From Nitrosopumilus sp. (GTDB lineage: Archaea > Thermoproteota > Nitrososphaeria > Nitrososphaerales > Nitrosopumilaceae), in contig OZ241857.1 in assembly GCA_965203315.1 (NCBI GenBank), forward strand, positions 1,876,505 to 1,940,504: a stretch of 64,000 nucleotides of DNA, given 5' to 3'. This document shows, piece after piece, positions 36,689 through 51,008 of this stretch. Each line of letters begins with the position of its first letter. Position 1 is the first letter of the stretch. The notes below the pieces were generated by a model. It did no database searches. It was not told the origin of the DNA and saw only the letters and a list, made by a program, of their open reading frames with translations. Both the position numbers and the translations under genes were made by a program.

Positions 36689-37039
36689 ATGGAAACAGAA
36701 CAAACTCAAAAGATGATCACAGTTACTGCAAAAGCAGCTGAAAAGATCAAAGAGTTTATGAACGAAGAAGCAGAGAAACCAGAATATCTACGTGTCTATG
36801 TTCAAGGTGGTGGTTGTTCTGGTCTATCTTATGGAATGGGCTTTGAGAAAGCACCAGAAGAAGACGACCTGGTTATGGAAGAGAATGGAATAAAACTCCT
36901 TGTCGACAACTATAGTGTTGATCATCTCAAGGGTGCAAATGTTGACTATATTGAGAGTCTGATGGGATCTGGCTTCAAGATCAACAATCCAAATGTAACA
37001 AAGTCTTGTTCTTGTGGTCACTCTTTTAGTACAGAGTAA
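36689..37039 (+). CDS. Fe-S cluster insertion protein (HesB/IscA/ErpA)
   Basis: GGGCSGLSY and CSCGHSF. Confidence 0.93.
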   Translation: METEQTQKMITVTAKAAEKIKEFMNEEAEKPEYLRVYVQGGGCSGLSYGMGFEKAPEEDDLVMEENGIKLLVDNYSVDHLKGANVDYIESLMGSGFKINNPNVTKSCSCGHSFSTE

Positions 37040-37393
37040 ATCCACTAGTCACTTTTTTTCATTTTTAATGCATGTGTGATCTATTCCAGGTTCTTTTAAC
37101 TTAACGGGGGGTCGATAGTTTTCACGCAACATTCTCTAAAAATTTTACAAGTCATGAAAAATGGTTAGAACACCCATTGTAGATTTTGCTGTTTTAAGTT
37201 GCATACAGTGCGTTTCTTGAAATACCTACAACTTAATCTTAACCCCCCGTTAAGTTAACCATATGTGAAGAAGTCGATCAGAGTACATTCAGATGATACA
37301 AAGCATGCAGGTCGATCCAAGCGATCATCTGTAAAGCGATCTAAAAGAGGAAATGCAAACAAACAGATTACCCATCCAAAAAGTAAAAACAAG

Positions 37394-38401
37394 ATGATCT
37401 ATATCGGAATAGATGCACATAAGAGATTTCTGCAAATTGCAGCAATGGATCAGGATGGCAAGCGTCTACTCAATGAGCGTGTTGCCACAGATCATGACAG
37501 TCTAAAAAAATTCTTTGCGCAGTTTACACCACTCAATACACGTTGTGTGATGGAGTCATCGTCAGTATGGTATTGGTTGTATAGATACTTGACAGATGAA
37601 TTGGGATTTGGTGTAGTGTTATCGAATCCATATCAAACAAAGGCTATTGCAGAATCAAAGAAAAAGACAGACAAGGTGGATGCATGGACACTGGCAGATC
37701 TTTTAAGAGGAAATTATATCTCGCCTTGTTTTGTTCCTAGTGAATACATTGTTAAATTGAAACAGTTGGTTCGACATAGAGATATAATTGTAAAAGGAAG
37801 AACGCGATACAAGAATCTTATACATGGGATATTACTGCAATATGGAATTAAAATACCTGGTTCAAGTTTTAGCAAGTCATTTAGAGAGGAATTGAAGAAA
37901 CTCGAGGATTATAGAATAGATAACTATTTGGACATGATAAACCTCTCTGACGAAAAGATTCGACAGTTGGATATTAAAATGCATAAAGAAGTAAAGAGAT
38001 CACATGATGCGCAGTTGTTAAAGACAATTCCGGGAGTTGGAAACTTTGTTGCACTTGTTGTAATATCCAGCATTGGAGATGTCAAGAGATTCCCAAATGT
38101 ACGCAAAATGTGTTCGTATGCAGGAATAGTGCCGTCTGTTCGCAATTCAGCTGGTAAACAAAATCACGGACGTATAACGAGGAAAGGTGATAAAATACTT
38201 AGATGGGCATTGACCGAAGCAGTTCATGTACACATAAAATGTGAACCCCATAGCTACATTACAAAATTTTATACTAGAATTAAAAAGAGACGCGTGACAA
38301 GCAAGGCAACTGTTGCAACTGCCTCCAAGCTACTCCGATTGATGTACCATATGCTTATAGATAGGGATGATTATGTCACACATTGTAGTCGAAATCATTA
38401 A
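37394..38401 (+). CDS. IS110/IS1111 DEDD recombinase (transposase)
   Basis: IGIDAHK, VMESS, KTDKVDA, TIPGVG and PSVRNSAG; start placed at ATG 37394 (the ORF track extends to 37265). Confidence 0.93.
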   Translation: MIYIGIDAHKRFLQIAAMDQDGKRLLNERVATDHDSLKKFFAQFTPLNTRCVMESSSVWYWLYRYLTDELGFGVVLSNPYQTKAIAESKKKTDKVDAWTLADLLRGNYISPCFVPSEYIVKLKQLVRHRDIIVKGRTRYKNLIHGILLQYGIKIPGSSFSKSFREELKKLEDYRIDNYLDMINLSDEKIRQLDIKMHKEVKRSHDAQLLKTIPGVGNFVALVVISSIGDVKRFPNVRKMCSYAGIVPSVRNSAGKQNHGRITRKGDKILRWALTEAVHVHIKCEPHSYITKFYTRIKKRRVTSKATVATASKLLRLMYHMLIDRDDYVTHCSRNH

Positions 38402-38590
38402 CGTACGGGTTCTGTTTGAGATATCACTCGGCAAGTTAAATGTACAGATTTTGACGAATGGACGAAGAATGATACTGAGTTAACCACTCGAATGGATATA
38501 TGTTCGCAGTCCTTTACATGGGAACACATCCCTAGCGTAAGCTATACACAATAGTCGTGAATCAGAGTAAATCTTTATAAGCTATTCACA
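38402..38590 (+). ncRNA. Putative bridge/seek RNA of the IS1111 element
   Basis: Two parallel stem-internal loop-hairpin units (38403-38445 and 38460-38512) carrying target and donor matches. Confidence 0.75.
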
Positions 38591-38715
38591 TGGATAAAAG
38601 AACCGTATTCCATATGGTGGCTTTTGATCACCATGTATTTGATATTGTATAAACTGTACAAATTTGATATTCTCACACTAACTTGAATCATTATTCTGCC
38701 ATGATTCCAATATGC

Positions 38716-39858
38716 CTAACTGACACCAAGATCTTTGAACGTCTTGAGTACTATTCCAGTAGAGTTGGTAAGGTTGGCTATTCTGTGACTTACAATATAT
38801 TCGACTCCTACATCTTTGGCGCTATCTAGGAGACGTTGCGTTATGATTCCATCTAGTAATAGATATTTTATTCCTGACTGAGTTGACAGCTTGGCCACGA
38901 CTTCACTTATTGGAACTTTAAAGATCTCTGAATGACTTTCATCTAGAGCTACTGCCTCTAGTGTTTGGTTTAGATCAGGATATATTTTAGCGGTGATGTC
39001 TGCAATCGGTTTATCTGCATCATCTTTGAGTTTTGGAGACTGCTTCTCTTCTTTGATCTCATCTGCTATGGGTCTTAGTATCTCATCTATTCGTTGAGGA
39101 GTTAGTTCTTCAACCTCTACTCCATTATCTGCTCGTACCTCGTAGTCTATAGTTACGACTGACTTTAACTCTTTCAGAATAAAACCGCCTGCTCTATCTC
39201 CATCTAGAAATGCAACTATGATATCTTTTGTCTTACACAACTCTTTGATGGACTCGTCGATCTTGGCCCCCTCAATAGCAATTGCATTATCATATCCTGC
39301 ACGTAATAGGTTGATGACATCTGCTCTTCCTTCTACTAGTATGATCCAATCTGAATCTAACATTCCTGGACTACATGTAAGTTTTGATGGACCATAAGTA
39401 GACAGCTTTTTCACATCTCCCTGGTGTACATCATTTAGCATGATCTCTCCTTCACTGACTGTCTTTGTTGCCCATTTTCGTTTGATCTCTTTTGCACGTC
39501 TTACAATATCCTCTTTCTTTGCAGCTCGTACATCATCTATGGTGTCTAGTTTGAATGTGCAGTCAAATGGTCCAACCTTGTCTATGCTCTCTATTCCTGC
39601 TGCAATTAACGCACACGTGTCGATGTCTGTACTCATGGGAATTATCACTGAACCTGAGGTGGTGTTTGTTGTCGATTTGGCAGTTACCTCTATTCGACCG
39701 ACTTTTGAGACTCGTTGTAACTCGTTCAGATTCATCTCCGGACCTAGAAGACCTTCGGTTTGACCAAAGATCGCTCCAATTATATCTGTCCGTTCAACGA
39801 GCCCATCAACTTCGTAGGAAAGCTTAACGTGATACTTGACAATTCCTGATTGAGGCAT
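38716..39858 (-). CDS. dnaG: Archaeal DnaG-type primase
   Basis: GAIFGQTEGLLG, VEGRADVINL and FLDGDRAG (TOPRIM). Confidence 0.95.
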   Translation of the reverse strand: MPQSGIVKYHVKLSYEVDGLVERTDIIGAIFGQTEGLLGPEMNLNELQRVSKVGRIEVTAKSTTNTTSGSVIIPMSTDIDTCALIAAGIESIDKVGPFDCTFKLDTIDDVRAAKKEDIVRRAKEIKRKWATKTVSEGEIMLNDVHQGDVKKLSTYGPSKLTCSPGMLDSDWIILVEGRADVINLLRAGYDNAIAIEGAKIDESIKELCKTKDIIVAFLDGDRAGGFILKELKSVVTIDYEVRADNGVEVEELTPQRIDEILRPIADEIKEEKQSPKLKDDADKPIADITAKIYPDLNQTLEAVALDESHSEIFKVPISEVVAKLSTQSGIKYLLLDGIITQRLLDSAKDVGVEYIVSHRIANLTNSTGIVLKTFKDLGVS

Positions 39859-50916: not shown

Positions 50917-51008
50917 GTTTATAGATACTTTAACTAATATTTAGTCGTTGTGTCTTGTGATGTTAGTGTAGTCGGTTCTGTTCAATTGACGGGGGTTGAG
51001 ATCATGAT

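Follow-up and report, generated by a model that had tools for sequence, protein, structure and literature searches.

An IS110-family insertion sequence with a putative target-matching guide RNA in the inverted repeat of a resident MITE of Nitrosopumilus sp.

Introduction

What leads an insertion sequence (IS) to settle at one fixed position inside the inverted repeat of another mobile element? This question is raised by a locus in a 64,000-nucleotide stretch of the Nitrosopumilus sp. assembly GCA_965203315.1 (contig OZ241857.1, positions 1,876,505 to 1,940,504), hereafter called the window, from whose first letter positions are counted unless another source is named. Here, an IS110-family element at 37258-38596 lies 7 bp inside the right inverted repeat of a miniature inverted-repeat transposable element (MITE). 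An initial annotation had proposed that this is an IS1111-type element programmed by its own bridge RNA against the repeat of the resident MITE. Our analysis upholds this proposal, based on three identical copies at the same site, a sister subfamily with rewritten guide arms, more than 20 relatives in which arms and flanks can be compared, and covariation in the helices of the predicted RNA. The element is very probably an active or recently active member of the IS110 family with an IS1111 layout, with a bridge/seekRNA aimed at the MITE repeat.

An IS110-family element splits the repeat of a MITE

The host MITE is 178 bp long, begins with GGTTCTTTTAACTTAACGGGGGG and, including the insertion, spans 37089-38604. 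Its interior ends in ...CCCCCCGTTAAGT-TA at 37257, directly followed by the start of the element (ACCATATG..., or ACCATATGTGAAG... in longer form), while the element ends in ...CACATGGA-TA (...TTCACATGGA-TA in longer form) at 38596 and is followed by the outer repeat bases AAAGAACC. The uninterrupted right repeat reads CCCCCCGTTAAGTTAAAAGAACC, and excision of the element in silico restores the exact complement of the left repeat. The left boundary is also backed by contigs that run on into AAGAACC at 37258, i.e. MITE copies without the element. The initial annotation had described the insertion in the right repeat, the repeat restored by excision, a target duplication identical at 7/8 positions and two RNA units, all of which was borne out on reading positions 36700-39000; its span of 37089-38612 does cover the MITE with the insertion, but the end coordinate takes in the duplication, the MITE itself ending at 38604.

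About 20 copies of the MITE at >80 % identity were found in the genome by BLAST, and the same inverted repeats bound 1469-bp elements that encode a DDE_Tnp_IS240/IS6-like transposase (PF13610, 6.9e-14; best NCBIfam model IS6 with 110.8 bits, below its cut-off of 125). Perfect 8-bp duplications surround other MITE and IS6 copies, i.e. CAGATAAG in the case of the 1469-bp element. With an IS6/IS240-type DDE transposase, inverted repeats and an 8-bp duplication, the target is that of an IS6-family element and the MITE derived from it.

The element itself encodes a 335 aa recombinase matching PF01548 (1.1e-28) and PF02371 (3.7e-24), both above the gathering scores, as well as the NCBIfam model NF033542, 'IS110 family RNA-guided transposase' (263.5 bits; cut-off 140). 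In an alignment of seven relatives, D7, E54, D93, D96 and S252 are invariant, the last within the motif GIVPSVRNSAG; we take these residues to be the catalytic D-E-D-D and the Ser of the G..P....S motif known for the family. The protein aligns over its full length with the transposases of plasmid-borne IS4321 at 25 % identity, and distantly, over two stretches, with the solved recombinases of ISCro4 (8.8e-13) and IS621 (5.2e-11). The gene is followed by 195 nt of non-coding sequence and preceded by 136 nt. Near both ends lie subterminal inverted repeats, which pair as CCAT[AT]GTGAA with nine matched bases and a 2-nt gap; when CCATATGTGAA (37260-37270) is set against TTCACATGG (38585-38593), the ATGTGAA/TTCACAT stretch is a perfect match of seven.

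Two sister subfamilies with different targets

In the genome (2.47 Mb, 7 contigs), we found three copies of this element, designated subfamily A and 100 % identical, six copies of a sister subfamily B, single representatives of the subfamilies C, D and E, and several fragments. All three A copies share the junctions ...CCCCCCGTTAAGT-TA-[element]-AAAGAACC at the same position of the repeat, in different MITEs with different outer flanks. The 14-mer of the empty site, AAGTTAAAAGAACC, occurs a further 45 times, each time at the end of such a repeat, so that 48 copies of the A target are present in the genome, three of which are occupied.

The B copies are 92-93 % identical to A and 97-100 % identical among themselves, the recombinases of A and B share 93 % identity, and the frames of both subfamilies are open. 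The B junction consensus is GACC-TA-[element]-ATATCTTACC, and the site used by B belongs to the inverted repeat of an IS66-family element, 1.7 kb in length, the transposase of which matches PF03050 (2.6e-28). The expectation that all genomic copies would occupy the same type of repeat held for A (3/3), with B residing in an IS66 repeat of its own. The copies B2 and B1, in inverted orientation, occupy both repeats (GTAAGATATTAGGTC...) of one IS66-family element, and B5 lies in one repeat of a second IS66 copy (near C1:1214455-1216124), the other repeat of which is empty and reads GAGACC-TA-ATATCATACC. The register within the target is the same in all three A copies and in five of the six B copies, B3 being offset by 2 nt.

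Several details of the B copies may be added. The IS66 element with two insertions (C1:231869-236219; loci L020 and L028) has outer flanks that are contiguous in four copies of a further repeat, with about 9 bp duplicated. In B3 (C1:673039-674375), the target half ATATCTTAC is shifted by 2 nt owing to an inserted GC, and the left flank has one mismatch (GATC), reflecting either an off-register insertion or a later change. B5 (C1:1216095-1217432; L023) has no first 28 bp of the left end, i.e. ...GACC-TA is joined to CATTCAGATGATAG; the joint is an internal TA of the element just 5' of the left-end motif described below. The right arm of B5 (AAGATGTT) has a G where A mismatches its own target.

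Identical copies at equivalent sites might also be dead relics, the three A copies having arisen by duplication of larger segments or by movement of the MITE and not by transposition of the element. Such decay does occur in the family, as seen from an in-frame TAG in the single C copy, the truncated left end of B5 and three remnants without a transposase gene. The A copies, however, occupy MITEs that differ in their ends and in the DNA around them, long identical flanks were not seen, the A and B frames are open with the high identities given above, and a severed repeat would be expected to block movement of the MITE. We therefore consider this explanation very improbable.

What distinguishes A from B is concentrated in the two arms of the first RNA unit downstream of the gene (unit 1; Table 1). 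The 195-nt 3' tails differ at 11 positions, eight of which fall in the 19 arm nucleotides of unit 1 (Fisher p = 2.4e-7), the arms being GGTTCTGTT and GCAAGTTAAA in A and GAAGATATT and GCGACCTAAA in B. The reverse complement of the first A arm, AACAGAACC, agrees with the right flank AAAAGAACC at 8/9 positions, and that of the first B arm, AATATCTT, with the right flank AATATCTT at 8/8. The second arm equals the left flank plus TA, i.e. AAGT-TA in A and GACC-TA in B. This supports a natural reprogramming, both arms having been rewritten to match the IS66-family repeat instead of the IS6-type repeat.

Could the arms simply be flanking target sequence that was captured in the past by an ordinary site-specific IS, the protein of which reads the MITE repeat? 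IS1111 ends were indeed once mis-assigned with target bases counted into the element, as mentioned in the accessible part of PMC11187229. Capture is nevertheless hard to reconcile with arms that are identical across loci and separated from the left junction by about 1.15 kb and from the right junction by 160-190 bp, or with the reverse-complement sense of one of them. In addition, the A and B recombinases are 93 % identical while their targets are alike in TA alone, and a joint change of both arms in five subfamilies is not explained by capture. We thus give this alternative hardly any weight.

The initial annotation had further derived an 'ideal target', AAGTTAACAGAACC, from the A arms. This sequence does not occur in the genome, its G being a tolerated mismatch, and the six termini of the GGTTCTGTTAAC type, which are one mismatch away from the ideal, are empty. 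It had also taken GGTTCTGTT for the terminus of a MITE family elsewhere in the window, which applies to three of the four other matches in the window, but none of the three A copies is found there. GGTTCTGTT occurs five times in the window against 0.54 expected, and 135 times in the genome, where its commonest continuation is CAATTGAC (40 times). CAATTGAC, of a second MITE family, misfits the other arm, and the sites have neither the TA nor the left target half. This second family is the larger one (terminus GGTTCTGTTCAATTGACGGGGG; window positions 50974, 58932 and 59100(-); about 70 termini genome-wide), and its terminus is akin to the IS6-type repeat, yet unused by subfamily A. MITE-like repeats are in general very abundant in this genome, e.g. 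a single 105-bp B6 flank gives 78 BLAST hits.

A putative guide RNA with two internal loops

A bridge/seekRNA about 120 nt long is predicted from the 3' non-coding region, with five helices and two internal loops in parallel. Its two units share one design, with a 5-bp stem closed by a G-U pair, arms of 9-11 nt and a hairpin that opens with U-G/G-C/A-U/G-C; unit 1 would bind the target and unit 2 the donor. Because a plain MAFFT alignment did not bring unit 1 of the different groups into line, RNAalifold recovered unit 2 alone from it. This was remedied by a covariance model, R1, built from a structure given by hand, to which the alignment was then fitted, a procedure that favours the given structure; controls with slid partners and an independent parse agree with it. 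Among 27 distinct sequences, 93.6 % of the cells in the helices are paired, compared with 34-46 % for slid partners, compensatory changes on both sides occur in 18 of the 28 pairs, and none of 500 shuffles attains these values. In 21-27 of the 27 sequences, the closing pairs are G-U.

These observations also bear on whether recognition might take place at the DNA level, the 3' region carrying DNA copies of the target halves and of the ends, which would be read by the recombinase or through DNA-DNA pairing. The matches of the arms with flanks and ends are sequence identities and as such silent on RNA versus DNA pairing. The five helices around the arms, in contrast, remain paired thanks to compensatory changes, among which are G-U pairs that would have no meaning in double-stranded DNA, and for characterized members the RNA is needed in trans and is purified along with the enzyme, as far as the available parts of PMC11187229 and PMC11208160 report. 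Recognition through DNA copies is therefore highly unlikely, and the reading as a guide RNA is preferred.

In its own genome, R1 gave 15 matches, i.e. 12 full elements and three remnants without a transposase gene, and across 54 sources it gave 29, all of them archaeal loci of the clade except for two contigs, one a 1.3-kb contig labelled Campylobacterales and the other a weak match in a Methanomassiliicoccales contig. It matched none of the bacterial loci and none of the three plasmid loci (E up to 0.01). The match begins 14 nt ahead of the stop codon of the recombinase gene.

The Campylobacterales-labelled contig (L047; 1281 bp) holds a complete element of the archaeal clade with 49 % identity and an R1 score of 60 bits, and its label probably reflects mis-binning and not transfer to a bacterium. 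The three remnants, without a transposase gene within 2.5 kb, are located at C5:139572-139687(-), C1:89971-90100(-) and C1:936505-936624(-); one of them is joined to a left-end fragment in inverted orientation, another resembles E, and the third is a degraded relic of B type. Dead remains or non-autonomous derivatives may be represented here.

Arms follow targets across the family

The other subfamilies of this genome are more distant (protein identity to A: C 62 %, D 56 %, E 52 %), and each has its own distinct arms fitting its own flanks. C sits in a 290-bp MITE-like repeat with a rearranged flank, E in unique DNA, and D (C1:1544171-1545510) splits the transposase gene of an element of the DDE_Tnp_4 type, 1.54 kb long. 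This element is uninterrupted in four other copies, where the site is CATCAC-TA-GAATTAC, and in the occupied one TA stands on both sides of the insertion (see also L116, 778-800). Since TA is present once in the empty and twice in the occupied D sites, TA is the core for this genome, as proposed in the initial annotation; A and B sites likewise show one TA when empty and TA at both junctions when occupied. Tests of other cores (a fixed AA or TAA, AC, a single T) against all junctions gave none that suits every relative; all five subfamilies of this genome agree with TA.

When species-representative genomes were scanned, 80 loci were obtained, and those with 44-56 % identity were nearly all from Nitrosopumilus or Nitrosopumilaceae, often several per genome. 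Among 15 elements with distinct arms, with misses counted in the sums, the right arm matches its own flank at 105/120 positions, compared with a mean of 3.7/8 for wrong pairings, and the left arm at 52/75, compared with 1.4/5. None of 100,000 permutations reaches either sum, although, as the compared elements are related, such figures overstate independence; the covariation of guide arms and flanks in homologues that the initial annotation had named as a check was thus found. In an out-of-sample set of seven elements retrieved with R1, five have at least 7/8 matches on the right side, and 10 of 5040 permutations reach the total; in the fixed register, L003 and L047 are misses. The strongest evidence is the A/B pair together with the distinct targets.

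Members of the family also target their own kind, judging from the ends of sister elements. In another Nitrosopumilus genome (L044; 2512-2720 and 3849-3969), the left subterminal repeat of a sister element carries an insertion of another member, the arms of which match AACTAT / ATGTGAAT, and L070 (~1310-1340) likewise has a right end abutting ATGTGAAT.

A number of observations weigh against our interpretation. No RNA run with the sequence was found among the public runs. In the assembled contigs of four runs, no circle junction and no joints were seen, the loose ends showing only MITE copies free of the element and flanks of other copies; this gives no evidence on expression or circles. The single-sequence fold of 38387-38506 is no more stable than that of shuffles (z = +0.58), and the minimum-energy fold gives P1, P4 and P5 but not the target loop; as the fold energy is unremarkable, the structural support is that of covariation only. 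A scan of 36900-38800 against Rfam (E up to 10) gave no match above a gathering score, the content of Rfam 15 with respect to bridge RNAs not being established. As to the arms, one position of A mismatches its real target, the fit of the donor-loop 5' arm to the junction departs from that predicted by the IS621 model, the fit of arms and flanks is poor in L069 (both sides) and in L039/L040 and L056 (left side), and the register of the right arm relative to the hairpin shifts by 0-2 nt between elements. The relatedness of the compared elements belongs here as well. Finally, several relatives have TG or TT at the right junction and TA at the left, i.e. the core is not strictly TA across the family.

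The four listings of the Rfam scan (snR34, RAGATH-30, a viral pseudoknot and snoZ17) scored far under their gathering cut-offs and were dismissed as chance. The deviating cores are those of L035-L038, L004, L005 and L039, with T-G (or T-T) at the right junction and T-A at the left; the right arm follows the G. Target and donor cores can, by this comparison, differ at the second base, with the outcome being the same every time (4/4 copies in L035-L038).

The donor loop and a motif inside the left end

The 3' arm of the donor loop tracks the right end of the element in the relatives (ATGGAT, ATAGAT, ATGGATGA). The 5' arm had been noted in the initial annotation to match only weakly, and indeed only 4-5 bases fit the very left end (ACCAT), with ATGG, ATAG or ACGG opposite CCAT, CTAT or CCGT; its sequence is not random, however, but varies in step with a site farther inside the left end, which it matches much better. 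In every subfamily, this arm closes with 7-9 bases that repeat, in the same sense, a stretch between +31 and +43 of the left end, the variants being ATGATAC in A, ATGATAG in B, AGATGATAC in C and D, ATGGTAC in L039 and AGATAGCAT in the L043 group. The 7-mer ATGATAC occurs in the A element at two places only, 37293-37299 and 38469-38475, and where B departs from A in this arm, at the single position 38475 (C to G), the same change is present at 37299. Over seven distinct variants, 48/56 positions match, a value reached by 6 of 5040 permutations.

The copy spans 38465-38475 and 37290-37299 and is found at the same places in B-E, L004, L035, L039, L043, L045 and L046. A complementary partner for the donor-loop 5' arm was found at no consistent place elsewhere in the element. 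A reading of the arm and the motif as box C-like was dropped, as the variant ATAGCAT is at odds with it, and a same-sense repeat in bacterial relatives (IS4321, a Sphingobium element and ISAtu7) allowed no conclusion, as their ends could not be set with confidence. From the sequence comparison, a second contact with donor DNA, a shared antisense partner or mimicry are possible explanations of the link.

A further conserved element of the right end is an outward-facing A/T-rich box, kept in all relatives at ~16-20 nt from the end (TTTATAA, TATAAAA, TTAAAAA, TTTTTAA), the GC-rich L005 included. In A, TTTATAA may be an archaeal TATA box that, in a circularized element, would read over the junction into the transposase gene.

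It is tempting to speculate, if only as a tentative and rather doubtful proposal, that these features belong together, i.e. that the donor-loop 5' arm base-pairs with the site 36-42 bp inside the left end and not, as in IS621, with the left end at the junction, that the right end carries an outward promoter, and that the family lives on the termini of other mobile elements. The arm would then either provide a further RNA-DNA contact, to the bottom donor strand, or a shared antisense RNA would tie the availability of the guide RNA to translation of the transposase leader. If this were true, we would be dealing with bridge recombination in an archaeal form that recognizes its donor, and is controlled, in a manner of its own, and with a Nitrosopumilaceae family that resides almost wholly at the ends of other mobile elements, among them those of its sisters.

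Proposed mechanism of insertion

Integration might proceed as follows. The 3' region would be transcribed, and recognition would be by RNA and not DNA. On the right side of the insertion point, the 5' arm of the target loop (GGTTCTGTT) would pair with the top strand, and on the left side the 3' arm (AAGT-TA-A) with the bottom strand, the two overlapping at TA, so that both arms would specify ...AAGT-TA-AAAGAACC, i.e. the inverted-repeat terminus of the IS6-family element and its MITEs. The 3' arm of the donor loop (ATGGA-TA) matches the element's right end. Following the example of IS621 and ISEc11, the complex of recombinase and RNA would synapse the circularized element with the target, the circle junction reading ...CATGGA-TA-ACCATATG..., with strand exchange at TA. 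Such an insertion would make no duplication and would cut the outer 8 bp off the MITE repeat.

Features of the locus

The coordinates of the locus are given in Table 1. Its neighbours are an Fe-S cluster assembly gene upstream and a convergent gene for a Toprim-domain protein downstream.

Table 1. Coordinates, strand and supporting information for the host MITE, the inserted element and the predicted guide RNA (positions in the window)
Feature	Position	Strand	Basis or remark
Left copy of the 8-bp target duplication of the host MITE (CTATTCCA)	37081-37088		Sequence reading
Host MITE: left inverted repeat, body and inner right repeat up to the TA core	37089-37257		Derived from an IS6-family element
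TA core dinucleotide, left copy, common to target and element	37256-37257	+	Comparison of empty and occupied sites
IS110-family (IS1111-like) insertion sequence, subfamily A	37258-38596	+	1339 bp including the right-hand TA; boundaries from empty MITE repeats
Left subterminal inverted repeat CCATATGTGAAG	37260-37271	+	Kept in all relatives
Left-end motif ATGATAC, element bases +36 to +42	37293-37299	+	Same sense as donor-loop 5' arm
Transposase/recombinase gene, 335 aa, start MIYIGIDAHK	37394-38401	+	Likely start; frame open from 37265
Putative target-binding unit (unit 1)	38388-38455	+	Covariance model R1, pair counts, arms compared with flanks
Outer helix P1	38388-38396 with 38447-38455	+	Overlaps last codons and stop codon of recombinase gene
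P2, stem GTACG / TGTAC	38403-38407 with 38441-38445	+	Unit 1
Unit 1 5' arm GGTTCTGTT	38408-38416	+	Predicted target arm
Unit 1 hairpin P3	38417-38430	+	Between target arms
Unit 1 3' arm GCAAGTTAAA	38431-38440	+	Predicted target arm
Putative donor-binding unit (unit 2)	38460-38505	+	P4 and P5 found unaided by RNAalifold
P4, stem GGACG / TGTTC	38460-38464 with 38501-38505	+	Unit 2
Unit 2 5' arm	38465-38475	+	Predicted donor arm
Unit 2 hairpin P5	38476-38490	+	Between donor arms
Unit 2 3' arm AATGGATATA	38491-38500	+	Predicted donor arm; ATGGATA = right end of element
Conserved A/T-rich box TTTATAA, outward-facing	38574-38580	+	16 nt from right end; candidate archaeal TATA box
Right subterminal inverted repeat CTATTCACATGG	38582-38593	+	Partner of left repeat
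Outer MITE right-repeat bases, severed (AAAGAACC)	38597-38604		Sequence reading
Right copy of the MITE duplication (GTATTCCA)	38605-38612		7/8 identical to CTATTCCA

Significance

Retargeting of such systems has so far been shown mostly by engineering, and the A/B pair is a natural case within a single genome, in which two elements with 93 % identity differ in target, about eight bases being rewritten in two arms. The bridge/seekRNA anatomy would thereby be extended to ammonia-oxidising archaea, with more than 20 pairs of arms and targets and a calibrated covariance model at hand. A compact recombinase (335 aa) and an RNA of ~120 nt from a mesophilic archaeon make a candidate editing tool. In the very repeat-rich genomes of Nitrosopumilus, one layer of mobile elements appears to parasitize, and probably to disable, another, and the link between the donor arm and the interior of the left end is a lead on how IS1111-type elements may recognize or regulate their own ends.

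An 'archaeal' IS1111/IS110 element is in itself not new. ISHvo10 and 'Hvo9' are already in ISfinder, and 662 archaeal IS110 recombinases are counted in the part of 10.1101/2024.06.21.599552 that is accessible. What adds interest is the sister retargeted to an IS66 repeat, the general habit of residing in mobile elements and the coupling of donor arm and left end. No description of these Nitrosopumilus elements, their guides or their targets was found in the accessible portions of the literature on archaeal and thaumarchaeal mobile elements; supplementary tables may list them.

Comparison with known systems

With both Pfam domains, the DEDD and Ser residues and an oriented, site-specific insertion without duplication beyond the core, the element belongs to the IS110 family. 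As to IS1111, the sections of Siddiquee et al. 2024 (PMC11187229) at our disposal characterize these elements by subterminal repeats, a downstream non-coding region, insertion without duplication and terminal extensions of 7 + 3 bp (or 6 + 3). Membership of this subgroup, which the initial annotation had assumed, applies in part: the subterminal repeats fall within the 7-17 bp expected and a 3' non-coding region with the predicted guide RNA lies downstream of the gene, but the extensions are 1 + 3 and not 7 + 3. More precisely, they amount to 1-2 bp on the left (A, or AC if the repeat starts at CATATG) and 3 bp on the right (ATA) when TA is assigned to the right end, and to 3 + 1 when it is assigned to the left, i.e. 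4-5 bp in total either way and not 10.

In the IS1111 seekRNA, the match to the top strand is reported to stand 5' of the match to the bottom strand, the two overlapping in the target (PMC11187229, in part), and the arm order here, with the top-strand-complementary arm 5' and an overlap in the target, is the same. According to the portion of Durrant et al. 2024 (PMC11208160) available, a bridge RNA is predicted in the right end of 93 % of the IS1111 elements, with pairings of 8-14 nt and donor sites that are often multi-loop; unlike in many of these, the donor loop described here is a simple internal loop, built like the target loop. The element thus resembles the IS1111 members with a seekRNA (ISEc11, ISKpn4, ISPa11) in its DEDD recombinase (PF01548 and PF02371), its subterminal repeats, its long downstream non-coding region, the order and overlap of the predicted RNA arms, the absence of a duplication beyond the shared core and the use of an own target by each close group. 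It differs from them in its archaeal host (Nitrosopumilaceae), its 1 + 3 extensions, an identity to IS4321 of just 25 %, and a left non-coding end that is also long (136 bp) and holds the same-sense copy of the donor arm.

With IS621 (structures 8WT6 and related), the element shares a related recombinase (5.2e-11) and a predicted two-loop RNA for target and donor, the arms of which share the core dinucleotide. The RNA lies downstream of the gene here, whereas it lies in the left end upstream of the gene in IS621, and the arms follow each other in the opposite order. IS621 has CT as its core in place of TA, and much shorter subterminal repeats.

A possible precedent for the donor-arm copy is ISPpu9, in which, as far as the accessible text of PMC12288879 describes it, a small RNA, Ssr9, is complementary to an antisense RNA, Asr9, and the RNA 3' of the transposase gene shares sense-strand sequence with the 5' leader, as in our element. 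In ISPpu9, the similarity is long and forms a separate module that is dispensable for transposition (same source and scope), while it is limited here to 7-9 nt inside the donor loop.

Finally, an IS110-family member is known that likewise hits a fixed position, in fixed orientation, in the inverted repeat of another transposon and thereby splits the repeat. In contrast to that case, the victims here are an IS6-family element with its MITEs for subfamily A and an IS66-family element for subfamily B, and two sisters that differ mainly in their guide arms reside in one and the same genome.

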